Positions 6,267 through 42,366 are shown, counted from the first letter of the stretch. The stretch is 64,000 nt of DNA from Bacilli bacterium (GCA_031553555.1 JAVBLL010000002.1:17738-81737), one strand, 5' to 3'. The notes: generated from the letters alone by a model not told the origin. Program-made: numbers and translations.

Positions 6267-6351
6267 GCCACTGTGTTGAAACAGGTAGACAAACTTGACT
6301 CAAAATCAAGCGCTGAAAGGCGTGCCGGTTCGAATCCGGCCAGTGGCACCA
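6267..6351 (+). tRNA. tRNA-Leu (anticodon CAA), class II with long variable arm, CCA encoded
   Basis: Cloverleaf read by hand. Acceptor GCCACTG/CAGTGGC, 3-bp D stem, anticodon stem CTTGA/TCAAG with loop CTCAAAA (anticodon CAA), 13-nt variable arm, T-arm GCCGG-TTCGAAT-CCGGC, discriminator A then CCA. Confidence 0.9.
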
Positions 6352-6619: not shown

Positions 6620-7792
6620 TTAGTTATTTGGTAATTTCCCACAATATTCAAATATTAAGTCAAGTTTACTATCAATATTTGCCTTCGCAATTTCGGTAAG
6701 ACGCAAATGTGATTTCTGGTGATGTACTACGTACGGGTTCTTGCCTGAATCTTGTGTCGCTGCATAAAAATATCGTCCTAAGTCGTCAATCATTGCTTTA
6801 ACTAATATCCCATTTCCTATTGTAGTATCAATATGTTTAAAATCACGCACTTTGCAGTAGTATGAATATTTATCCATCCAAGGATATTCTAATTTCATTG
6901 TTTGGTCAGCTTCTTGAGCAGTGCTATCGAATATACCACAACCAACAATGTGTTGAGTGGGCTTGCCTCTTTCATCTATGCTCACAACAGCCATGTAGAA
7001 CTGTTCTCCTAACCTAATGCTCGGCATGCCTTTTTTAAATGGAAATGCAGTAATCATTTGGCCTTGCCAAATCGTAGGCTTATATCTCTCTGATGGTTTT
7101 GATCTACTATCAGCAGATTCCTCAAATTTTAACCAAATTCTATTTATAGAATGTGATAATGGCATTAATGATTGCGGTGCAGTATTTTGAGCTGATGTAG
7201 AAATAGGAGAACTATGCACTTTAACGGTTGACGGTGGCTCTGCACCCCATTTCTCAGTAGGCTCATATGGTTCTTCAAAGGGCTTTTCATTTTGAACTTT
7301 ATTTTTAACCTTGTCTATCATTTCGTCTATTCGGGATGCCAAGATCTCAAAACTTGGATTTGTTATTCGATATAAATTCTGAAAGAATTCAATAAGCTCA
7401 CGAACCAACTGTGGATCTTCCTGAATAAACAATGATAATTCATTATTATAATGAAAACCACCAGATGTAAAATTAGCAGAACCAACGATTGCAGAAGTAT
7501 CATCAAAAATGTAAAGTTTTGTATGAAGTTTTTTTAATGCATACAAACCGATATTTGCATTTTTTAAATCTCTCAGTCCTTCAATACAACTTACTCCCTT
7601 GTAAAAATCACTATCATAAAAGCGTGTGATTACATCAACTTGTATAGACTGATTTAACAGTTTCGTTTTACATAATAAATCTGTCATCTCCTTTCCCAAG
7701 AAAGGAGATATGATTTTTATACTGCTATTTACAGAAGCAAAAAGATTCGTTATGATTTGAAAATGATTATTTGAAACAACAGAAATATACAT
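6620..7792 (-). CDS. PLD/HKD-superfamily nuclease-like protein with uncharacterised ~200 aa C-terminal domain
   Basis: 390 aa. One HxK(x4)D motif plus a GSxN motif (residues 90-109: HTKLYIFDDTSAIVGSANFT) after an ~85 aa N-terminal region. An acidic/proline linker follows, then an aromatic-rich C-terminal domain with no motif I recognise. Own promoter and RBS (gaggtg 8 nt before ATG). Confidence 0.6.
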   Translation of the reverse strand: MYISVVSNNHFQIITNLFASVNSSIKIISPFLGKEMTDLLCKTKLLNQSIQVDVITRFYDSDFYKGVSCIEGLRDLKNANIGLYALKKLHTKLYIFDDTSAIVGSANFTSGGFHYNNELSLFIQEDPQLVRELIEFFQNLYRITNPSFEILASRIDEMIDKVKNKVQNEKPFEEPYEPTEKWGAEPPSTVKVHSSPISTSAQNTAPQSLMPLSHSINRIWLKFEESADSRSKPSERYKPTIWQGQMITAFPFKKGMPSIRLGEQFYMAVVSIDERGKPTQHIVGCGIFDSTAQEADQTMKLEYPWMDKYSYYCKVRDFKHIDTTIGNGILVKAMIDDLGRYFYAATQDSGKNPYVVHHQKSHLRLTEIAKANIDSKLDLIFEYCGKLPNN

Positions 7793-14973: not shown

Positions 14974-15008
14974 TAGATGGTTATATAAATAACCATCTTT
15001 TTATTTGC
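14974..15008 (+). terminator. intrinsic terminator after the gcv-lpd operon
   Basis: Stem agatggttat/ataaccatct followed by ttttatttg. Confidence 0.6.
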
Positions 15009-15111
15009 TTACTTAGGATATATGGCAAAATTCAAAAATAAAAATTTATTAAAATAGTTAGAAAAAAAGTCAATTATTTTGTTATACTATATATGAAAGG
15101 TAATGATTATT

Positions 15112-15984
15112 ATGAAAAAAACATTTATACTTATAATAATTATATTTAGTGTATTTCTTATGGCTTGCAATCAAGAATATAGTGGTAAAGAAATAAGTTA
15201 TATGGAATATACAAGAATAGATTATAATGGTGGTTATAGAAACCAAACGAAAATTGACTTAAATACCAATGAAGTTCTTGTAAGAGGTTATTTGGATGAA
15301 GAAGTTGACTATGAAGTTATACATAATTTTGATGAGACAAATGAAAAAGAATTTATTAATAAAATCTTTCAATCAGGATTGTTTGCTTTAAAAGATGAAT
15401 ACAAAAACACTATTCCAATAATAGATGGTGGTGGTTGGAATTTGATTATTCAATATACTGATGGAAGCACAAAAATATCAAAAGGAAGTAATGCTAGTCC
15501 TAGTAAAATATTCAAGGAAGCAGATTATGCATTTTATAATTTATATGGAGATGACTTCTTTGGTTATCTAGATAGTTCTTATAAAAATCCTCCAAGCATA
15601 GATATAGCAATAAAATATCAAGATGGAAATAATAATATAAGTGATGGAAGTGGATTGAAAGTTTCTAATTACACTTGGAATAAAAGGAAAGTTGATAATA
15701 TAAATAATATTGACTTTGCTAAAGAAAATCAAAAATATGAATATGATAGTAATATCGAATACAAATTTGTTTTATGGACGGCAAATTATGAATATAAGTT
15801 TAATAAAATGATTATTAAATCATATGATATAAATGGTTATGATGAAAAAACAATTATTGAATGTAAATGGTTTAAACAAAAGGAATTTAATTTAGAATAT
15901 GATAGAATATATATTATAACAATGGAATTTGATTATGGAACTTGCGAATATCCTTTTGCTACAAAAATTAATAAACTAGGTTGA
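15112..15984 (+). CDS. lipoprotein, unknown function (paralogue of 17352..17861)
   Basis: Lipoprotein signal MKKTFILIIIIFSVFLMAC (lipobox LMAC). The central ~100 aa aligns to the second lipoprotein (KIFQSGLFALKDEYKN..IIDGGGWNLIIQYTDGST vs KISNHGIYNLKEDYQP..ITDGSSWRLIITFSDGTT). Confidence 0.7.
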   Translation: MKKTFILIIIIFSVFLMACNQEYSGKEISYMEYTRIDYNGGYRNQTKIDLNTNEVLVRGYLDEEVDYEVIHNFDETNEKEFINKIFQSGLFALKDEYKNTIPIIDGGGWNLIIQYTDGSTKISKGSNASPSKIFKEADYAFYNLYGDDFFGYLDSSYKNPPSIDIAIKYQDGNNNISDGSGLKVSNYTWNKRKVDNINNIDFAKENQKYEYDSNIEYKFVLWTANYEYKFNKMIIKSYDINGYDEKTIIECKWFKQKEFNLEYDRIYIITMEFDYGTCEYPFATKINKLG

Positions 15985-16017
15985 AATCCAGTGCATAAAT
16001 TCTCATAAAATTTAATA

Positions 16018-16050
16018 AGAGAAATTAGTAAAAACTAATTTCTCTTTTTG
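16018..16050 (+). terminator. intrinsic terminator
   Basis: 11-bp stem agagaaattag/ctaatttctct with a 6-nt loop, then ttttg. Confidence 0.7.
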
Positions 16051-16158
16051 GTTGAACTATTCAACTAAAAATTCAATATAATAGTTATTTCATTATTAGT
16101 AATAATACTATATAATGATAGTGTAAATGGTCATTTACAAGAAAAAGGAGTGAAAATA

Positions 16159-17229
16159 ATGAATATTAAAATAGCATCACAAATTAAATCATTAAGAGAA
16201 TCAAAAAATGTCTCGCAAACAAAACTTGCTGAGTTTTTAAATATCTCTTTTCAGTCAGTATCAAAATGGGAAAATGGTCTTGCATATCCAGATATCACTT
16301 TGCTACCAAAACTTGCTGGTTTTCTAGGAGTTACAGTGGATGAATTATTAGGTGTTTCAGAGATAGAGAAAAGCCAAAGATATGAAGAGTATGAGAATAA
16401 AGCTGAAGAATTATATAAAAATGGGTTAGTAAAAGAACATTTGATTTTATGGAAAGAAGCATATGATGAACTACCTAATAATTATGATGTAAAACAATAT
16501 TTAATGTGTGCATATTCTGACATAGATAAACAAAAATACTTTAATGAAATCATTGAACTAGCAATGGATATTTACCATAATGATATAAATATGTATAATA
16601 AAGCACAAGCTATAAGAATTATTTCTAATACTTATTTTGAAAACAATGATAAAGAAAAAGCAATTCAATGGGCTAATAAATCAGTCCCCATTTACTGCTC
16701 TGCCGATATAATTAGTTATCAATTTTATGAAGGCGAAGAATTAATGAGAAGCATTCATTATAATGTTTATTGGTTTTTAGAAGAATTATGGCATATGACT
16801 TCCCACATGGTATATGGAGAGAAGACTTTTATGGATTTGAAATTCAAACAAGATTATTTAAAAAATACTCTAAGTATATATGAGTCAGTATATCCAAATT
16901 GTGATACATTTTTTAATACATATGACCATTATTATTGTTTATATGGTGATATAGCAAAATTTGGCGTATCGCTTGGTAACAGCGAAGACGAAGTAAAATA
17001 TTATTTAGAAAAAGCTTTGGAATGTGCAGAAAAATCTAGTAATTTAAAAGGACATTTATTGAAGAGTCCGCTTATGTATAATAAATATGTTGAAGATGCT
17101 CCAAATACAGACAAACGATTGGTTATTGTTAATCAAATGAGAAAGTTTTTAAATTTTACTGAGTTTGATATATATCGAAATAAAGAATGGTTTCAACAAA
17201 TAAATAAAAAACTATCATCTTTAAATTAA
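16159..17229 (+). CDS. XRE-family HTH transcriptional regulator with C-terminal TPR-like domain (RNPP/Rgg-like architecture)
   Basis: N-terminal HTH_XRE (LRESKNVSQTKLAEFLNISFQSVSKWENGLAYPDITLL), then ~290 aa of helical repeats. AAGGAG RBS before the ATG at 16159. Confidence 0.75.
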   Translation: MNIKIASQIKSLRESKNVSQTKLAEFLNISFQSVSKWENGLAYPDITLLPKLAGFLGVTVDELLGVSEIEKSQRYEEYENKAEELYKNGLVKEHLILWKEAYDELPNNYDVKQYLMCAYSDIDKQKYFNEIIELAMDIYHNDINMYNKAQAIRIISNTYFENNDKEKAIQWANKSVPIYCSADIISYQFYEGEELMRSIHYNVYWFLEELWHMTSHMVYGEKTFMDLKFKQDYLKNTLSIYESVYPNCDTFFNTYDHYYCLYGDIAKFGVSLGNSEDEVKYYLEKALECAEKSSNLKGHLLKSPLMYNKYVEDAPNTDKRLVIVNQMRKFLNFTEFDIYRNKEWFQQINKKLSSLN

Positions 17230-17351
17230 TTGAATAACTTTGCTTTTTGAAAGGTATACTATTATTTCTACTTATGGTATAATATATTTAGTTAGAATTT
17301 TTTCAAAAAAAAAGATGATGAATATTGTTATATATGCAAGGAGATTTATTT

Positions 17352-17861
17352 ATGAAAACCAATCGTTATTATTTATTTGTTTTACTATTATTGTTTTCTA
17401 CTGTCTTAATTGGATGTGAATATAATGGACCTTATAAGGGAAATGAAGTCACCCAGATTTATTATTGTCTTCAGGGATCTGAATGGCCTGTAAAATATGA
17501 GAAATCATATGATTTTACTAATCTAACTTATTCAACAAAAACTTGTGATGATCCATATAGTCATTATAAGGAAGATTTTATAGAACATGAATTTGAAATC
17601 GTAGCCACGTTCACAAAGGAAGAGGCAGACAATTTTTTAAAAAAGATTAGTAATCATGGAATATATAATTTAAAAGAAGATTATCAGCCTTTTGCTATGA
17701 TTACAGATGGTTCCTCTTGGCGTTTGATTATTACTTTTAGTGATGGTACAACATTTAACAGTGGTGGATATATGAAATCACCTTCGCAAGCTACAACAAT
17801 TAATAAAGATTCACAGGATTTTATTGGTGTTGATTTATTTACTATTTATCGAAATTATTAG
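17352..17861 (+). CDS. lipoprotein, unknown function (paralogue of 15112..15984)
   Basis: Signal MKTNRYYLFVLLLLFSTVLIGC (lipobox LIGC), AAGGAG RBS, and a shared domain with the upstream lipoprotein. Confidence 0.7.
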   Translation: MKTNRYYLFVLLLLFSTVLIGCEYNGPYKGNEVTQIYYCLQGSEWPVKYEKSYDFTNLTYSTKTCDDPYSHYKEDFIEHEFEIVATFTKEEADNFLKKISNHGIYNLKEDYQPFAMITDGSSWRLIITFSDGTTFNSGGYMKSPSQATTINKDSQDFIGVDLFTIYRNY

Positions 17862-17876
17862 TTTTTGAGGAATGAT

Positions 17877-18293
17877 ATGGAAGTAAGAGGAAAAGCTGAA
17901 AAAATTTATAAAAATACCCGCAAATTAATCATTAGCTGCTGTGATCATGATGGTTATCCATATACAAAAGTTGTTTTACCAACTTGTCTGCGTGATTCAA
18001 TAGAAACTATTTATATAGCAACAAACACTTCATCCAAGTTCGTTGAAAATATTAAAATAAACTCAAAAGCAAATGTCTATTTTTATGATGGAATATTTTA
18101 TAAGGGCTGCATGCTAAAAGGAAATATGAGTATTTGTGATGATATGTCATTAAAGAAGAAGTTGTGGTCTAATGCATATAAAGGTGCATATCCTCTTGGT
18201 GTTCCAGAGGATCCTGATTATTGTGTTTTAATATTTAAGGCATTAAGTGGACGTTATTATTCAATGTATAAAACTTATGATTTTGAAGTTTAA
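17877..18293 (+). CDS. pyridoxamine-5'-phosphate-oxidase-like (FMN-binding split barrel) family protein
   Basis: ~138 aa, beta-rich, compositionally PNPOx/general-stress-protein-26-like. The assignment is tentative. Confidence 0.4.
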   Translation: MEVRGKAEKIYKNTRKLIISCCDHDGYPYTKVVLPTCLRDSIETIYIATNTSSKFVENIKINSKANVYFYDGIFYKGCMLKGNMSICDDMSLKKKLWSNAYKGAYPLGVPEDPDYCVLIFKALSGRYYSMYKTYDFEV

Positions 18294-18341
18294 GTGGAAG
18301 ATATTCTTCCACTTTTTTGGTCTATAAAACATTCATAGACA

Positions 18342-18821
18342 ATGATTTTGCCATATATTAAATTGAAATCATTAATCTTGATTGAACTTATTAAGAAGAA
18401 AGGGGTTAATAAGATTGAAGGGATTAATAAGGCAGGTGATTTCATGGAAATCCTGTGGGAATTATTTCAAAAATATGGTTGGCTTGCAGTAATTATTGTT
18501 TTAGTTGTTATTTTAACACAAATTGTTAAGAAACTTTTTTTGAATAAAATGGTAGCTGAGGTAGAAAAAAACGGCTTTGATAAATCGTTAATTACCAAAA
18601 ATTTTATGTATGTACCTTATATAATTTCCTTTATTTTGTCTTCACTATATCAGTTAATTGTATTAAAATTTAATTTTGTAAATTTTAATATACATAAGGT
18701 GATTAGTGATACAGTGATTATTGCTTTTGCATCCATTGGTTTATATGAACAAATAAAATTACAACTTGAAGCATATAAAATAAAAAAAACATTACAACAA
18801 AATGATGATAAAAGTGACTAA
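18342..18821 (+). CDS. small membrane protein, unknown function (start uncertain; likely internal ATG near 18444)
   Basis: Two or three predicted TM helices (WLAVIIVLVVILTQIV; YVPYIISFILSSLYQLIVL; VIIAFASIGLY) with no recognisable motif. Confidence 0.45.
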   Translation: MILPYIKLKSLILIELIKKKGVNKIEGINKAGDFMEILWELFQKYGWLAVIIVLVVILTQIVKKLFLNKMVAEVEKNGFDKSLITKNFMYVPYIISFILSSLYQLIVLKFNFVNFNIHKVISDTVIIAFASIGLYEQIKLQLEAYKIKKTLQQNDDKSD

Positions 18822-18823
18822 AA

Positions 18824-18860
18824 AAGAAGCGATAGTTGATTAGCTCAATTATCGCTTCTT
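18824..18860. terminator. bidirectional terminator between convergent genes
   Basis: 11-bp stem aagaagcgata/tatcgcttctt with an A-run before it and a T-rich stretch after it. Confidence 0.6.
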
Positions 18861-18872
18861 TGACTTTATTAT

Positions 18873-28091: not shown

Positions 28092-29786
28092 ATGAAATTT
28101 AAAAATTATCCTTACCAAAGAATAAATATTAAAGAAACAATTGATGCAATCAATGATATGCAGAAACGTTTTGCTATTGCCTCGGATATAAAAGAACAAA
28201 TAGAATGTATAGAAGAATTTAATGCTCTTTGCCTACATGTATCAACAATGGAAAATCTTGTATATGTACGTCATACTATTGATACCAGAGATAAGTTTTA
28301 TGATGAAGAACAAAATTTTATTGATGAAAAAGGCCCTTCAATAAAAAGTGCCCAAACAGAGTTTATAAAAGTCTTACTGAAATCATCATTTAGAAAAGAA
28401 TTAGAAGAGACTTTTGGAGTACATTTATTTAATTTATTAGAGGCTCAATTAAAGTCATTTGACGAAAAAATCATGGAAGAGGTTATTGTTGAAAACAAAT
28501 TAATAACAAAATATAACAGATTGATTGCCAGCTGTGAAATTGAATTTGCCGGAAAAAAATATAATCTTTCACAGTTAAATGCTTTTTTTGAAAATGATAA
28601 TCGTGAAATCAGAAAAAATGCTCAAGAAACATATTGGAATTTTTTTATTGAACATGAAAAAGAGTTTGATGAAATATATGATGAATTGGTCAAGATTCGT
28701 GATAAAATGGCTAAGAAAATGGGTTATCAAAATTATGTTGAATTTGGATATTATCGTTTAGGTCGAACTGATTATAATAGTGAAATGGTTGCTAATTACC
28801 GCAAACAAATAGCAGAATATGTTGTGCCAATTAGCCAAGAACTTTATAAGCGCCAACAAAAACGTATGGACATAGATCAGTTATATTACTATGATCTTCC
28901 AGTAGAATTTAAATCAGGAAATCCCACTCCCAAAGGTACACCAGATAAATTAGTAAAGATGGCACAAGAAATGTATGCAGAGATGTCATTAGATACAAAA
29001 GAATTTTTTGATTTTATGATTGAGCATGAACTAATGGATTTGGTAGCAAAACCAGGAAAAGAAGGCGGAGGTTATTGTACTTATTTTTCTGATTTTCAGT
29101 CCCCATTCATTTTCTCGAATTTTAATGGAACAAAAGGTGATGTAGATGTTTTAACCCATGAAGCTGGTCATGCATTTCAAGTATATCAATCAAGAAATGT
29201 TAAAATTGCTGAATATATTTGGCCAACTTATGAGGCATGTGAGATTCATTCAATGAGTATGGAGTTCTTTGCTTGGCCTTGGATGGAAAAGTTTTTTGAA
29301 GAAGATACAGCAAAATATAGATTTTCTCATTTACAATCAGCTTTAAAATTTATCCCATATGGGGCAAGTATTGATGAGTTTCAACACTATGTTTATGAAA
29401 ATCCTGAAGCTACCCCACAAATGAGAAAAAGTAAATATCGTGAAATAGAGAAAAAATATGTTCCTCACAAAAATTATGAAAATAATGTTTTTCTTAATAA
29501 TGGTGGTCTATGGATGAGACAAAGTCATGTATTTGCCAGTCCATTCTATTATATTGATTATACTCTTGCCCAAGTATGTGCTCTGCAATATTTAATTAAG
29601 GATATGGAAAATCATCAAACTGCTTGGAATAATTATTTATCACTTTGTAAGCTTGGAGGTACAAAATCATTTTTGGATTTATTAAAAACTGTTAAGTTAG
29701 ATAATCCTTTTAATGATGGAACTATTAATAAGATTTGTTTGAAATGTAAAAATATATTAGATAATATGGATGACAGTAAATTTTAA
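28092..29786 (+). CDS. pepF: oligoendopeptidase F (M3B family)
   Basis: 564 aa with HEAGHAFQ (HExxH) and a downstream Glu. Confidence 0.8.
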   Translation: MKFKNYPYQRINIKETIDAINDMQKRFAIASDIKEQIECIEEFNALCLHVSTMENLVYVRHTIDTRDKFYDEEQNFIDEKGPSIKSAQTEFIKVLLKSSFRKELEETFGVHLFNLLEAQLKSFDEKIMEEVIVENKLITKYNRLIASCEIEFAGKKYNLSQLNAFFENDNREIRKNAQETYWNFFIEHEKEFDEIYDELVKIRDKMAKKMGYQNYVEFGYYRLGRTDYNSEMVANYRKQIAEYVVPISQELYKRQQKRMDIDQLYYYDLPVEFKSGNPTPKGTPDKLVKMAQEMYAEMSLDTKEFFDFMIEHELMDLVAKPGKEGGGYCTYFSDFQSPFIFSNFNGTKGDVDVLTHEAGHAFQVYQSRNVKIAEYIWPTYEACEIHSMSMEFFAWPWMEKFFEEDTAKYRFSHLQSALKFIPYGASIDEFQHYVYENPEATPQMRKSKYREIEKKYVPHKNYENNVFLNNGGLWMRQSHVFASPFYYIDYTLAQVCALQYLIKDMENHQTAWNNYLSLCKLGGTKSFLDLLKTVKLDNPFNDGTINKICLKCKNILDNMDDSKF

Positions 29787-38136: not shown

Positions 38137-38227
38137 TCATAGCTGACTGCCCTTTTATTTTTATATAAAAATAAAAGAGTAATTTCTTCACTTTTTTTAA
38201 AATATATAGTTGAAAAAAGGGGGATAT

Positions 38228-40198
38228 ATGAAAAAAATAATATTGTTATTGTTTTTTATTAGTTTGTTTTTAATTAATATTCATCTATTAGTTAATGGAT
38301 CTAGTGCAAATGTTGAAGATATCTACATTGAAATCGGAGTAGGTAGTGATGATCTGCTTTTACTTGATGGATTTGTAATAGTTGATAATGAAGTCAATTG
38401 GAATTTTGTTGGTCATTATGAAGTTCTTTACTATAATGAATTCACATCAAAATATTTAAAAAGAGAAGTGGTTGTTCAAGACATTGAAAATCTTCATAAA
38501 ACGGTTATGAAGTTTAGTAATTTTTCAGAAATCAACTTAGAAAGTGATTATAGTTATGTAGATACTTTGTATAAAACATCAACTAGTTACTATGTATTAG
38601 CAAATTATCAAGTGCCTAATCCAACATACTATGATCAAGAATATGGTTGTGTTTTTTATTATGAAAATGACATTCTGAAATGGCAATATGCTTATAATTC
38701 GGAATTTGGTAATGTTTATGCTGGATGTCTAACAAAAAATAGTATAGTAATATGCCTAGCAATATATGATTCACCACTTTCTAGCCAAACTAGTTTGATG
38801 CTTGTAGAATTAAATGAAAATAAGGAAGTAATAAAGTCCAAGAAATTTATTGGAAATGGCCAAGACCATCCATTTAGAATTTTTTTTCAAGATAATTTCC
38901 TTTATTTATTAATGACAACAACCTCAAAAACTGATGATTATTATAAATATCACAAAGCATCTAATAATGTTATTTTGTTATTGAAATTAGACTATGCTAA
39001 TCTCTTAGAAATTGGTTATGTTGTTGTTGGCAACAATAGTTACAATTATTTTATTGACTGTGTTTTCAATGATAATATGATAACCTTGTTAGTGCATACT
39101 AGTGGGACTTCTGGTAGTTATAATAATGACAAGAGTTATGAAGGTTATTTAGTAGTTAGAATTAATCATCTTATGAAAATAACTAATTATTTTTATGTAG
39201 GAAGATCATATGACAGTATGAAAGGGTTGATTTCTAATGGCTATAATATTTTTATTTATTATACAAACCCTTTTGAAAGTGGGAATCATTTATGTTTACA
39301 AAAATTAACTAATGAAGGGAAAAGTATTTTCCGTCAAAAATTGAGCATGGTTGACGTTAATTATTATATTAGTGATATGAAGGTGATATATGGAGAAGAG
39401 GGAAATATTTACTGTTTTTTAAATGCTGCAAAAAATGGACAATATTACGATGGTGGCTTATTAGTGATAAGTAATGATAATTTGGAGTATTTAGAAGGAG
39501 ATTACCAGCAAGATCGATTGGTAAAGGTAGAACACTATGGTAAAGAAATTGTTAAAGTATATTATTCAAATAACACCATCAAACTTCTTAATTGTGAAAT
39601 ACTTCAAGTTAGCAGTTATTATTCTATTAATGATAAGTTTAAAAAACTCATTTACATAGTTAATTATAATGGTCAAGTAATTGAAGCATTCTATAATAAT
39701 GAACTAGATTATCAAAGATATGGTTATCAAGAGACTTTAGCAATCTATTATTTATCAAATAATAAAATGCTTATTTTAAAAGAAAACATAAATGTTTTTT
39801 CAATTACAAATATCAAACAAAATCAAACTTATCAATTAGGTGTAAAGCTAGAGTTCAACAGCGATGGATATTTGGGTGATTCACTAATTTATGATGGATA
39901 TGCAGTTATGGCTAAGGGGACTTATAATTTGCGATTAAGAGGGCTAGGTGATGAAGAAACAATTATTCAATTTCATGTAGATGATTTGCTTATCAAATGC
40001 AAATATAAAACAAATAATTATCCCATGCTTGAAAAAACAGAAGAGAGCTATAATGCAAAAACAAATATTCCTGATAACATTGACATTGATATAAAAAATC
40101 AAAAAGCAAAGGGCGGTTCTGTTATTATTGTTTTGAGTATGCTTATAATTTCACTTATAATTGTTGTAGTTATTAGGAGGAAGAAATGTCGATATTAA
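38228..40198 (+). CDS. large Tyr/Asn-rich surface protein with signal peptide, Ig-like segments and C-terminal TM anchor (paralogue 1)
   Basis: Signal MKKIILLLFFISLFLINIHLLVNG and a C-terminal hydrophobic helix plus basic tail (VIIVLSMLIISLIIVVVIRRKK). Ig-like motifs near the N-terminus (GHYEVLYYNE...VVVQD) and C-terminus (KGTYNLRLRGLGDEETIIQFHVDD). Confidence 0.55.
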   Translation: MKKIILLLFFISLFLINIHLLVNGSSANVEDIYIEIGVGSDDLLLLDGFVIVDNEVNWNFVGHYEVLYYNEFTSKYLKREVVVQDIENLHKTVMKFSNFSEINLESDYSYVDTLYKTSTSYYVLANYQVPNPTYYDQEYGCVFYYENDILKWQYAYNSEFGNVYAGCLTKNSIVICLAIYDSPLSSQTSLMLVELNENKEVIKSKKFIGNGQDHPFRIFFQDNFLYLLMTTTSKTDDYYKYHKASNNVILLLKLDYANLLEIGYVVVGNNSYNYFIDCVFNDNMITLLVHTSGTSGSYNNDKSYEGYLVVRINHLMKITNYFYVGRSYDSMKGLISNGYNIFIYYTNPFESGNHLCLQKLTNEGKSIFRQKLSMVDVNYYISDMKVIYGEEGNIYCFLNAAKNGQYYDGGLLVISNDNLEYLEGDYQQDRLVKVEHYGKEIVKVYYSNNTIKLLNCEILQVSSYYSINDKFKKLIYIVNYNGQVIEAFYNNELDYQRYGYQETLAIYYLSNNKMLILKENINVFSITNIKQNQTYQLGVKLEFNSDGYLGDSLIYDGYAVMAKGTYNLRLRGLGDEETIIQFHVDDLLIKCKYKTNNYPMLEKTEESYNAKTNIPDNIDIDIKNQKAKGGSVIIVLSMLIISLIIVVVIRRKKCRY

Positions 40199-42366
40199 CA
40201 ATTTTTCTAAGTTTTTTTATGTCTTTTTTTCATGATTTTAAGATTATTGATGAAAGCGTTGAGGAATTAGTATTTACATTTGGTGAATTTGAGATTAAAG
40301 AAATTCATTCTATGCGTTATTTATATTATAATGATATATTGTTAGAAGAAGAAAACACAATGATAGTTTCTAAATATTTTTTAGAAAGTAATCGTTTTGT
40401 TATATTTAGTTGGAATACATTCACATCTGATGTTGTCATTCGAAGTTATAGTTTAAATGGTTCAAGACAAACAAAAATAATTTTTGATAACAAAATTGTA
40501 GGTGATTTTGATGTAGCATTATATGATGATATGTATTATTTAGTTGGTGGAGTTAATAGTTATACTAATTCGTTTTTTTATAATGCTCATGATGGTAAAA
40601 ACTATTTGTTAGGAATGAATAATGTTCTTTTTAGTTTTGATAGCAATTTTTCTATTAAAAATGTTAGAATAACAGGAGGAGTATTGGATGAATTTTTTTA
40701 TAAAATTACTGTTTCAAATGAGTTTATATATGTAGTTGGTTATAAAGAGACTTTATCGGGATATGATTTTGGTAATGGTGGTGGGGAGGATTTTGGCTAT
40801 ATTTTAGCAACTTATAATCATACAATGAGTTTATTAGATTATGTAGTCACAGATGAGGAGATTGTTGATTTTTTTAATATAAATAATAAGAATGTTTTAA
40901 TTACAAAAAATCAAATTCATCAATTAAATAATGATTTAAATACCATCATAAGCCTGAAATTACCCTCTACATGCATTTTTGCGAGTGTGAGTAAGAATAA
41001 TTGCCTCCTGATTTTAAGTCAAGATAAACTGAAAATTTACGACCTTTCTAATATGAAACTTTTAAATGAATATTTATTATCTCAAAACATCAACCGAGCT
41101 TTATATTATAATGATGTCTTTTATTTGATTGGTCAAGATCAAATTCATAAACTGATTATTTATGATTATGATAGTTTTAAAGAACAAGTTGTTTATGATG
41201 ATGTTGTAGAAATGAATGAAGTAATAAATGGATGGAACTTCCAATATAAATTATTGAATAAAATATATCTTAATGTTTTTGATCCGCTAGTTAATGGTGA
41301 TTATCAAGTATTATATGATTATGGTGCTTTTGAAATAGAGGGTACAGTAAAGGTATTAGAAAGGGCAAATGTGACAGATGGTAACATTTATAGTGTTGGT
41401 TATTGTTTATTGTTTTCTGGCCGTGGATACTTAAATGATATTCTCATCTATAATAATCATCAAATTACCGCTCCTGGTAATTATACATTGAAGCTGTACG
41501 ATCAAAATAGTAATTGCCGCATCATTAATTTTTTTGTAGAATATGAGCAAATAAATTTTTACGAAAATGATAATAAAAATTGGGACTATGAATTGTCTCA
41601 GAATGAAGAATTATTCTTCTCGTTTACACTCAATCAAAATAATGTATCTATTGAAAGAGTAGTAGTGAATGATGAAGATTGGCCTTATACTTATGTTGAT
41701 CGACAAATTAATTTGTGTTTTTCTGAAAAAAATTCGGGTTTATATTATTATGATGTAAAAATGATTGAATACTCATTAGATGGAGAAATGTATTATATTT
41801 CTATAGATAAACAATTAAAAATTAAAATATTAGAAAATGATTTGTCAATAACTAGTTATATTAGTGATAATACTAAAGTGATTAATTATAAAGGAGAAGT
41901 CCAGGATTCATTAAATATGCTTCGATATGTAAAAATTAAAATCATTGGGAATAGTGAACAAGAATACTGTTTATCATTGAAATCACAAAAAATCGTTTTG
42001 ACACTTAATAAAAGCCTTGAGAACCCATTAGTTTATGTATGTTTAGTTTTCGACAATGGAAGTAAGCAGTTAGGTATAAAAACTCTTTTAAATATGCAGT
42101 TTATTGGGCATTTTGATGTAATAAATATTGGTGAAATAATAATGCATATGCGGGAAAATACAACAACTAATTTCACTTTGAAAATATTGAAAACAAGTGG
42201 TTTAGAGCGAATGTTTGTTCAAAATAAAGAAATATATGCTTTTCAAAAAACAACATATATAGCTAGCCTATTGATTGGTATTGGCGTTATGGTTATAACT
42301 ATTATTAGCGGTTTATTTATTTATAAAAAAGAGTTTAGATTAGGATTCAAAAGAAAGATTAAGTAA
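40186..42366 (+). CDS. large Tyr/Asn-rich surface protein with signal/TM N-terminus and C-terminal TM anchor (paralogue 2)
   Basis: AGGAGG RBS; start overlaps the upstream stop. C-terminal anchor IASLLIGIGVMVITIISGLFIYKKE. Shared motif APGNYTLKLYDQNSNCRIINFFVE matches KGTYNLRLRGLGDEETIIQFHVD in paralogue 1. Confidence 0.55.
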   Translation: MSILTIFLSFFMSFFHDFKIIDESVEELVFTFGEFEIKEIHSMRYLYYNDILLEEENTMIVSKYFLESNRFVIFSWNTFTSDVVIRSYSLNGSRQTKIIFDNKIVGDFDVALYDDMYYLVGGVNSYTNSFFYNAHDGKNYLLGMNNVLFSFDSNFSIKNVRITGGVLDEFFYKITVSNEFIYVVGYKETLSGYDFGNGGGEDFGYILATYNHTMSLLDYVVTDEEIVDFFNINNKNVLITKNQIHQLNNDLNTIISLKLPSTCIFASVSKNNCLLILSQDKLKIYDLSNMKLLNEYLLSQNINRALYYNDVFYLIGQDQIHKLIIYDYDSFKEQVVYDDVVEMNEVINGWNFQYKLLNKIYLNVFDPLVNGDYQVLYDYGAFEIEGTVKVLERANVTDGNIYSVGYCLLFSGRGYLNDILIYNNHQITAPGNYTLKLYDQNSNCRIINFFVEYEQINFYENDNKNWDYELSQNEELFFSFTLNQNNVSIERVVVNDEDWPYTYVDRQINLCFSEKNSGLYYYDVKMIEYSLDGEMYYISIDKQLKIKILENDLSITSYISDNTKVINYKGEVQDSLNMLRYVKIKIIGNSEQEYCLSLKSQKIVLTLNKSLENPLVYVCLVFDNGSKQLGIKTLLNMQFIGHFDVINIGEIIMHMRENTTTNFTLKILKTSGLERMFVQNKEIYAFQKTTYIASLLIGIGVMVITIISGLFIYKKEFRLGFKRKIK

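Follow-up and report, generated by a model that had tools for sequence, protein, structure and literature searches.

A putative orphan RRNPP-like regulator and its candidate operators within a block of accessory genes

Five genes separate the gcv-lpd operon from a convergent DAHP-synthase gene in the 64 kb window studied here (the whole stretch of DNA analysed, 64,000 nucleotides). With a probability we place a little above even, they are accessory genes of independent distribution that have come to lie side by side in this lineage, around an autoregulated orphan RRNPP-like regulator, and do not form a conserved system. The outcome for this locus is mostly a correction, as the tidy five-gene 'module' proposed in an earlier note on this DNA fails comparative genomics. 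The regulator gene also carries a promoter cassette that recurs in its family and is new here, comprising a GTTGA-N5-TCAAC box some 105 nt ahead of the start codon and, after the -10 element, a perfect palindrome that is specific to each clade. For orphan RRNPP-like regulators as a class, the cassette offers a concrete candidate operator.

Boundaries and transcription units of the block

Open reading frame calls across the window place five + strand genes between gcvT/H/P-lpd on one side and the convergent DAHP-synthase gene on the other, encoding in order a lipoprotein (lipoprotein 1), an XRE-HTH and TPR-like regulator, a second lipoprotein (lipoprotein 2), a PNPOx-like protein and a small membrane protein. 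Unless stated otherwise, all features described below are on the + strand. The block is accessory-looking, as the earlier note had remarked, in that it sits between housekeeping operons, and its GC content is lower than that of its flanks. The boundaries given previously were also recovered: one terminator-like hairpin lies upstream at the end of the gcv-lpd operon (14975–14998, 10-bp stem then T run), and another, common to the block and the convergent DAHP-synthase (aroG-like) gene, lies downstream (18823–18861, 17-bp stem). The terminator scan returned six such sites compared to 1.3 expected. Two hairpins that the earlier note lacked are internal to the block, one between lipoprotein 1 and the regulator (16017–16046, 13-bp stem, scored on both strands) and one 3' of the PNPOx-like gene (18292–18314, 10-bp stem then T run), so that the block probably comprises three transcription units.

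Because of the hairpin at 16017–16046, lipoprotein 1 is likely to form a transcription unit of its own. The 122 nt that separate the regulator from lipoprotein 2 contain no terminator-like hairpin, so that transcription from the regulator promoter probably continues into the genes for lipoprotein 2 and the PNPOx-like flavoprotein; an extended -10-like element read from the sequence (TGGTATAAT, 17275–17283) precedes lipoprotein 2 and may possibly serve these two genes as well. The PNPOx-like gene (17877–18293), which starts 15 nt after lipoprotein 2 and is probably co-transcribed with it, encodes a split-barrel flavoprotein of 138 aa. Its earlier assignment stands, as it passes the gathering thresholds of both Pyrid_ox_like (PF16242, 44.4 bits, cut-off 28.8) and PNPOx_N (PF01243, 41.2 bits, cut-off 28.1), but it is not a PdxH equivalog (TIGR00558, 14.4 bits against a cut-off of 180).

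The membrane protein gene (18444–18821, 125 aa) is predicted to be transcribed separately. Its ATG follows a ribosome-binding-site-like element, GGCAGGTG, and the reading frame is open from 18342, giving 159 aa. The protein contains two strong hydrophobic segments, in agreement with its original description, and has no match in Pfam or PADLOC. It matches holin phrog_1299 weakly (E=1e-4, with no single stretch passing alone), and there is no endolysin or phage gene near it.

Several other interpretations of the block were discarded. A 14-nt inverted repeat, ATATATGGCAAAAT, is present at 15018 and 18345. The possibility that it marks mobile-element ends or an operator common to both places was dropped, since the match goes no further than these 14 nt and a 14-mer of this kind arises in 2.2% of shuffles. 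No transposase, integrase or adjacent tRNA was found at the block. PADLOC returned only HTH-level matches for the regulator and nothing notable for the other four proteins, which disposes of a defence system, and a riboswitch or other RNA element was dropped as the block has no Rfam match at E<=1.

Two paralogues from a family of surface lipoproteins

Lipoprotein 1 (15112–15984, 290 aa) has an SPII signal peptide, MKKTFILIIIIFSVFLMAC, and its mature part is modelled as an N-terminal alpha/beta domain of ~140 aa followed by a C-terminal Ig/FN3-like beta-sandwich. Lipoprotein 2 (17352–17861, 169 aa) likewise has an SPII signal peptide, MKTNRYYLFVLLLLFSTVLIGC, after which it consists of the alpha/beta domain in common with lipoprotein 1 and nothing else, a length resembling that of family members such as P0122 and P0139. 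The two lipoboxes, ...FLMAC and ...VLIGC, both fit the G+LPP pattern; Cys19 is kept in at least 90% of aligned orthologues, and the signal peptides of lipoprotein 1 orthologues are not conserved. The paralogy claimed in the earlier note is borne out by formal alignment, with 36% identity over 69 aa in BLASTP (E=8e-13) and 31% identity over ~140 aa in MAFFT, equivalent to the entire mature lipoprotein 2. The paralogues are old and belong to a family of surface lipoproteins that has no annotation.

This family was recovered only by a full HMMER scan, a word-indexed homologue search with lipoprotein 2 having returned nothing except itself, and comprises 232 cluster representatives at E<=1e-3; a metagenome locus scan with a narrower alignment (A5) gave only three loci. 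Orthologues occur in Acholeplasmataceae-like bacteria, and the family could become a new entry in Pfam, covering surface proteins from low-GC bacteria that resemble Acholeplasma. The N-terminal alpha/beta domain is confidently modelled and has no close solved relative. One family member, P0134, in which an HTH and the lipoprotein domain are joined to a YmdB fragment, was considered as a 'Rosetta stone' link and discounted as a single case with the appearance of a chimeric or truncated call. Lipoproteins 1 and 2 are the only family members in the 64 kb window, and it is unusual for the only two to bracket the regulator, which speaks against a chance arrangement. There may be a lineage-specific functional link between the lipoproteins and the regulator, as the nearest homologues compared were only ~50% identical.

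The regulator, its family and its promoter cassette

The regulator gene (16159–17229) begins with an ATG 8 nt after AAGGAG and encodes 356 aa, one fewer than the 357 aa given in the earlier note, whose assignment to the RNPP/Rgg architecture otherwise holds. The model comprises a five-helix HTH (residues 1–64; HTH_3 match at E=1e-14, above the gathering score of PF01381) and then ~14 helices (residues 66–355) forming an all-alpha, TPR-like C-terminal domain, as had been expected, at a pLDDT of 93. A profile of the regulator family matches consensus TPR proteins at E=2e-8, and the top full-length Foldseek matches in the PDB are PlcR, ComR, PrgX, NprR and Rgg2, all weak (E=5e-5 to 1e-2). The confidently modelled C-terminal fold supports the HTH plus TPR-like architecture of RNPP/RRNPP receptors. 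NCBIfam gives no match to a family model of Rgg, PlcR or NprR.

Database searches yielded 468 matches to the regulator, mostly from gut and rumen Clostridia and often in paralogous arrays, the nearest homologue being 50% identical; the nearest lipoproteins are also about 50% identical to those at the locus. Neighbours of the homologues are variable, the commonest being paralogous XRE regulators. The co-occurrence of regulator and lipoproteins that the earlier note suggested checking was seen in none of the other loci compared. Neither the lipoproteins nor the PNPOx-like or membrane protein genes are present in about 90 loci with regulator homologues (tblastn of the four proteins against 91 such loci gave matches in the same genome only), and the seven loci with lipoprotein 1 orthologues include no XRE-TPR regulator and no second lipoprotein copy. 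A PNPOx-like gene does adjoin the regulator homologue in locus L042, a single case in roughly 70 neighbour positions and not significant. In loci L007, L024 and L044 the homologue adjoins an unrelated secreted protein or lipoprotein on the same strand.

Upstream of the regulator gene, the promoter layout is conserved in the family. A palindromic candidate operator, GTTGAACTATTCAAC (Box 1, 16051–16065), lies ~108 nt ahead of the regulator's ATG, at about -65 relative to the predicted start of transcription, and is the only exact GTTGA-N5-TCAAC box in the 64 kb window. In homologue loci the box lies at -103 to -121, and with at most one mismatch it is present in 16 of 98 upstream regions compared to 9 of 490 control segments. 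Exact sites number 11 in 742 kb of loci (about 0.7 in shuffles), and six of these are ~105 nt before a regulator start. The promoter itself is predicted from sequence at 16088–16116, with a -35-like TTTCAT (16088–16093) inside a conserved GTTATT element, a 17-nt spacer and a TATAAT -10 (16111–16116); the aligned -10 positions T78, A79, T80 and T83 are invariant in 19 loci.

Between the -10 and the ribosome-binding site, 20–37 nt before the regulator ATG, is a perfect 18-bp palindrome, TGTAAATGGTCATTTACA (16122–16139), which is unique in the window and is a candidate autorepression operator. Alignment of homologue promoters shows that other clades carry TGTAGCTACA or GAACAAGCGCTTGTTC at the same site, with a near-identical TGTAAATGGCCAATTACA in locus L024, and a palindrome just 3' of the -10 is present in 11 of the 17 homologue loci inspected for it. 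The full layout aligns in 19 loci whose proteins are only 28–50% identical to this regulator. Neither box nor palindrome precedes the gene of either lipoprotein or that of the membrane protein. Both sites are candidates, either of which may be the regulator's own, and its binding there and the direction of regulation are predicted.

Alternative readings and known systems

RRNPP quorum-sensing systems have been defined by a five-criterion signature which includes a receptor of 250–500 aa, TPR-type repeats, and an adjacent gene (-60 to 400 bp) for a propeptide of 10–100 aa, exported via Sec/SPI or PptAB and trimmed to a short mature form (PMC10075063). At 356 aa, and with an HTH and TPR-type repeats, the regulator resembles such a receptor, and the prominence of RNPP proteins among its structural matches also suits a canonical pair, in which an overlooked small propeptide gene would lie beside the regulator and its processed peptide would bind the TPR groove. 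Yet no ORF of 10–70 aa with a ribosome-binding site and hydrophobic stretch occurs within 400 nt on either side, no small propeptide-like ORF is common to the homologue loci examined, and the adjoining genes encode proteins of 290 and 169 aa. The sole extra ORF in the downstream gap (17240–17419, TTG start, 59 aa) overlaps the start of lipoprotein 2 and was not kept by the small-ORF scan, while a 47-aa ORF after the homologue in locus L008 is neither hydrophobic or secretion-like nor conserved. The receptor-propeptide pairing which defines RRNPP systems is therefore missing, and the quorum-sensing analogy drawn in the earlier note does not extend to it; together with the lack of an NCBIfam family match, this makes a canonical pair highly improbable. 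In enterococci, PrgX and TraA sense the pheromones cCF10 and cAD1, which are released by cleavage of lipoprotein signal peptides. By analogy, the ligands of the regulator could be peptides from the flanking lipoprotein signal sequences (e.g. around IIIIFSVF and LLLLFSTV), a proposal suited to the similar hydrophobic cores of the two SPII signal peptides, the presence of PrgX among the structural matches and the absence of a conventional propeptide gene. If true, the circuit would be self-contained and would apply the enterococcal cCF10/cAD1 principle in cis on the chromosome of a low-GC bacterium. However, it is based on analogy, the adjacency of regulator and lipoproteins is conserved nowhere else among the loci compared, the lipoprotein 1 signal peptides vary between orthologues, and no Eep-like protease or Opp importer is linked to the locus, so we give it very little credence.

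It is also possible, if rather unlikely, that the TPR-like domain serves protein interaction or small-molecule binding, and that the regulator plays no part in quorum sensing but is an ordinary XRE-type repressor or anti-repressor partner. TM-scores to RNPP proteins of only 0.25–0.35 are consistent with this, as are the paralogous XRE regulators that often adjoin the homologues and hint at networks among regulators. On the other hand, RNPP receptors are still the top full-length matches, no partner was identified here, and only peptide ligands have been found for RRNPP-type proteins (PMC6414698). The earlier note saw in the five genes a single module for signalling or adaptation at the cell surface; on this view, an envelope signal would be sensed or delivered by the lipoproteins, whose expression the regulator would control in response. 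The bracketing of the regulator by the window's only two family lipoproteins, the arrangement of five genes on one strand between strong terminators, the low GC content and the secreted proteins or lipoproteins beside three homologues all fit such a module. We nevertheless consider it distinctly unlikely, given that the genes co-occur in none of the regulator or lipoprotein 1 loci, that internal hairpins divide the block, that the box is found only at the regulator's own promoter with nothing comparable before the lipoprotein or membrane protein genes, and that there is no evident way for an HTH-TPR protein in the cytoplasm to contact lipid-anchored proteins outside the cell.

Under the favoured reading of a juxtaposition around an orphan regulator, a dimer of the XRE HTH would bind the palindromic sites of its own promoter, namely the box upstream of the -35 and the 18-bp palindrome after the -10, and would thereby autoregulate in the manner of RstA from Clostridioides difficile. 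The TPR-like domain would receive a ligand, either a peptide that originates elsewhere (an 'eavesdropper' mode) or a partner protein. Probable read-through from the regulator promoter into lipoprotein 2 and the PNPOx-like gene, which may also have a promoter of their own, would provide the block's one internal regulatory link.

Among known proteins, PlcR/PapR, ComR/ComS, PrgX, NprR and Rgg share with the regulator an HTH plus TPR-like superhelix and a length of 250–500 aa, and bind palindromic boxes near promoters, as is proposed for the candidate sites here. For the lipoproteins, the closest entry is the Pfam family DUF6438, matched below the gathering score of 30 bits by lipoprotein 2 (19.2 bits, E=0.0015) and, weakly over the common domain, by 10 of 60 family members (all sub-gathering, best E=1.5e-4), with no match from lipoprotein 1; as DUF6438 has no known function, the match adds nothing mechanistic. 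In the Qss systems of solventogenic clostridia the regulator is accompanied by a small signalling-peptide precursor gene. Such pairing is found neither here nor in the homologue loci examined, and the Qss regulators are likened to this one by architecture. As described in two reports (PMC7376267, PMC7206700), those of C. acetobutylicum and C. saccharoperbutylacetonicum are RRNPP-type, multi-paralogue XRE-TPR proteins of Clostridia, each system in the latter species pairing the regulator with a further component (PMC7206700).

RstA likewise has an N-terminal XRE-type HTH, a C-terminal TPR-like domain and no adjacent propeptide gene. It autorepresses through an inverted repeat overlapping its own promoter, from which transcription starts 32 nt before the ATG (PMC6414698); in a similar position, the perfect palindrome here lies just after the -10. 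The upstream GTTGA-N5-TCAAC box is an additional element specific to the present family. In addition, RstA contains a region that binds Spo0F, and its targets include toxin and motility genes; the only predicted target here is the regulator's own promoter. The likeness drawn is one of architecture and promoter layout, and on that analogy the best reading of the regulator is as an autoregulated orphan RRNPP-like protein comparable to C. difficile RstA.

Composition of the five-gene block

The block is a non-conserved arrangement of known kinds of gene, and its main value lies in two things, an undescribed lipoprotein domain and the conserved candidate operator cassette shared by a large family of orphan regulators. 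It is flanked on one side by the gcvT-gcvH-gcvPA-gcvPB-lpd operon and on the other by a convergent DAHP-synthase gene, and its GC content (0.21-0.29) is somewhat below that of the flanking housekeeping genes (0.29-0.35). All five genes lie on the + strand, encoding lipoprotein 1 (15112-15984, 290 aa), an XRE-type regulator (16159-17229, 356 aa), lipoprotein 2 (17352-17861, 169 aa), a PNPOx-like protein (17877-18293, 138 aa) and a small membrane protein whose frame is open from 18342, with a likelier start at 18444 (125 aa). The regulator length of 357 aa given in the earlier note is one residue too long, counting from the ATG that lies 8 nt past AAGGAG. Family-profile matches make the PNPOx-like protein a split-barrel flavoprotein of ordinary type and reject its identification as PdxH. 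The membrane protein matches holins only weakly, and no lysis genes accompany it.

A consensus scan of 14-20 kb detected six terminator-like hairpins compared to 1.3 expected, and recovered both terminators previously placed at the limits of the block (14975-14998 and 18823-18861). Because such hairpins also fall inside it, directly 3' of lipoprotein 1 (16017-16046) and of the PNPOx-like gene (18292-18314), the layout is suggestive of three transcription units, one for lipoprotein 1, one for the regulator with lipoprotein 2 and the PNPOx-like gene, and one for the membrane protein. An exact 14-nt inverted repeat, ATATATGGCAAAAT, present at 15018-15031 (+) and 18345-18358 (-) and nowhere else in the 64 kb, flanks the stretch from lipoprotein 1 to the PNPOx-like gene near the terminators at 14975-14998 and 18292-18314; the match stops at 14 nt, and a common 14-mer arose in 2.2% of shuffles of four intergenic regions.

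No Rfam family was matched, and no integrase or transposase was seen. Outside the block the window carries the usual chromosomal genes, among them dnaE, metG, a cluster of ribosomal-protein genes with rpoB, and peptidases. Its sole tRNA gene, tRNA-Leu CAA (6267-6351, +), lies ~9 kb upstream of the block and adjoins a gene for a PLD-family, NgoFVII-like restriction endonuclease (6620-7792, -), which may be another small accessory insertion. At E<=1e-5, Pfam matched none of three large + strand ORFs (28092-29786, 564 aa; 38210-40198, 662 aa; 40186-42366, 726 aa).

Promoter cassette of the regulator family

The database holds 468 relatives of the regulator, the best of them 50% identical apart from an identical copy in the same strain (locus L001), and in a genome-collection scan most members came from metagenome-assembled genomes of Clostridia of the gut and rumen. 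The HTH is the best-conserved part of the family, thus a conserved operator is expected. The conserved promoter cassette of these XRE-TPR regulators is new here: 130 nt 5' of the start codon can be aligned in 19 loci, although the encoded proteins share no more than 28-50% identity with the regulator. The layout was noted in the window (16034-16161) and, within the ~130 nt preceding each regulator start, in the database loci L002, L007, L008, L012, L015-L018, L020-L022, L028, L030, L031, L036, L044, L045 and L054. Conservation is thus easier to recognise in the promoter region than in the proteins.

The alignment resolves a palindromic box, GTTGA-N5-TCAAC (16051-16065 in the window), a further TCAAC-like half-site ~10 nt downstream of it, the element GGTTATTG carrying the -35, and the -10 TATAAT (16111-16116). 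Straight after the -10 comes a perfect palindrome of clade-specific sequence, which is TGTAAATGGTCATTTACA (18 bp, 16122-16139) in the window and TGTAGCTACA or GAACAAGCGCTTGTTC in other clades. With zero or one mismatch the box occurs in 16 of 98 upstream regions, with few exceptions at -103 to -121 from the regulator start, compared to 9 of 490 control segments. The 742 kb of loci contain 11 exact copies (~0.7 in shuffles), six of them ~105 nt before a regulator start. The window has a single exact copy, at the regulator's own promoter; copies with one mismatch lie within ORFs or within the 18823-18861 terminator, where GTTGATTAGCTCAAT (18835-18849), in the loop region of this bidirectional terminator after the membrane-protein gene, is probably fortuitous. 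The regions upstream of the two lipoprotein genes and of the membrane-protein gene have no counterpart of either the box or the palindrome.

Locus L024 (3624-7080), from a Bacilli metagenome-assembled genome of 25% GC, contains XRE-TPR paralogues in tandem, two in number. The second, a 28%-identical homologue of the regulator, has the palindromes TGTAAACTAGTTTACA and TGTAAATGGCCAATTACA, of which TGTAAATGGCCAATTACA nearly repeats the operator candidate of the window; behind it lies a gene for a probable lipoprotein of 287 aa, unrelated to those of the block and matched by no Pfam family.

Lipoproteins and gene neighbourhoods

The two lipoproteins are paralogous, as had been claimed (36% identity over 69 aa, E=8e-13, BLASTP; 31% over ~140 aa in global alignment), the whole of mature lipoprotein 2 aligning globally with the N-terminal domain of lipoprotein 1, and both signal peptides match the lipobox pattern G+LPP. 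Lipoprotein 2 had no relatives in a word-indexed search, but when a profile of the two sequences was run with HMMER over all 1.84 billion cluster representatives, 232 proteins scored E<=1e-3, of which 112 reached E<=1e-10. These are ~160-175 aa (lipoprotein-2-like), ~290-310 aa (lipoprotein-1-like) or 420-580 aa long, with the domain straight after the signal peptide in most, and one was traced to an Acholeplasmataceae metagenome-assembled genome. No Pfam family was found to cover the shared domain, DUF6438 being matched weakly, and always below threshold, by lipoprotein 2 (E=0.0015) and 10 of 60 relatives; both proteins belong to an unannotated family. In one library protein, P0134 (270 aa), the lipoprotein domain, lacking its signal peptide, is combined with an XRE HTH and part of YmdB; this has the look of a gene call that is chimeric or frameshifted, and it was rejected as a genuine fusion.

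Among 91 regulator loci, tblastn matched the two lipoproteins, the PNPOx-like protein and the membrane protein only in L001. Neighbours of regulator homologues are varied, the commonest being another XRE-type regulator, and a few homologues adjoin unrelated secreted proteins or lipoproteins (L007, with DUF3888, L024 and L044). The only other PNPOx-like neighbour among these loci is a PNPOx_N-family gene (L042, 1310-1705) 183 nt upstream of a 28%-identical homologue, probably a coincidence. Conversely, the seven loci with lipoprotein-1 orthologues (L092-L098, two of which, L093 and L094, encode an identical protein) each carry a single copy, with no lipoprotein-2-like gene and no XRE-TPR regulator. 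In L095 (3702-6888) the orthologue is last in a same-strand run after a sigma-70-like protein, a 173-aa protein and a serpin, starting 13 nt past the serpin gene, an adjacency that might point to a function of the family in the envelope or in connection with proteases. Because regulator loci and lipoprotein-1 loci do not overlap elsewhere, the five-gene arrangement appears, as far as these data go, specific to the source genome, in a comparison set without its close relatives.

Regulatory model and relation to RRNPP systems

RstA of C. difficile represses itself via an inverted repeat over its promoter (PMC6414698), and by this analogy we infer that the regulator may autoregulate through the candidate promoter sites. 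In the proposed mechanism, a dimer of the XRE-TPR protein would bind its own promoter while the TPR domain takes in a signal, which could be a protein partner or a peptide made elsewhere. Transcription from this promoter may read on into lipoprotein 2 and the PNPOx-like gene (starting 15 nt past lipoprotein 2), since no terminator-like hairpin was found in the 122-nt gap after the regulator, or these two genes could be driven independently by an extended -10-like element, TGGTATAAT, at 17275-17283; lipoprotein 1 and the membrane protein would be separate units. Taken as a whole, we lean slightly towards this mechanism.

Several other explanations rank lower. A TPR domain with a non-peptide or protein-partner function is unlikely. 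That the block is a true lineage-specific module, as the single signalling or adaptation module of the earlier note implies, is somewhat more doubtful still: paralogous lipoproteins do bracket the regulator, and the internal hairpins and separate loci elsewhere weigh on the other side. It is very improbable that a propeptide gene was missed, as the 400 nt on each side of the regulator in the window contain no small ORF that combines a ribosome-binding site with a hydrophobic stretch, nor is such an ORF a shared trait of 16 homologue loci. Pheromones derived from the lipoprotein signal peptides, of which the block encodes two, are equally hard to credit given the lack of such lipoproteins at other regulator loci.

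The C-terminal domain of the regulator is TPR-like, so the case that the earlier note named as refuting its reading, absence of this fold, does not arise. The RNPP reading holds for the architecture, not for membership of any known RNPP subfamily. RRNPP systems are recognised by a TPR receptor of 250-500 aa immediately beside a gene for a secreted propeptide of 10-100 aa (PMC10075063), whereas the neighbours here are full-size lipoproteins. As the regulator lacks this defining adjacency and its structural similarity to RRNPP systems is weak, we class it as an RRNPP-like XRE-TPR regulator of no named subfamily. With no candidate propeptide ORF adjoining, it is, as judged from gene context, an orphan, like RstA, likewise without an adjacent propeptide (PMC6414698), and like the "eavesdropper" receptors (PMC9765709); orphan RRNPP regulators such as RstA are its closest functional likeness.
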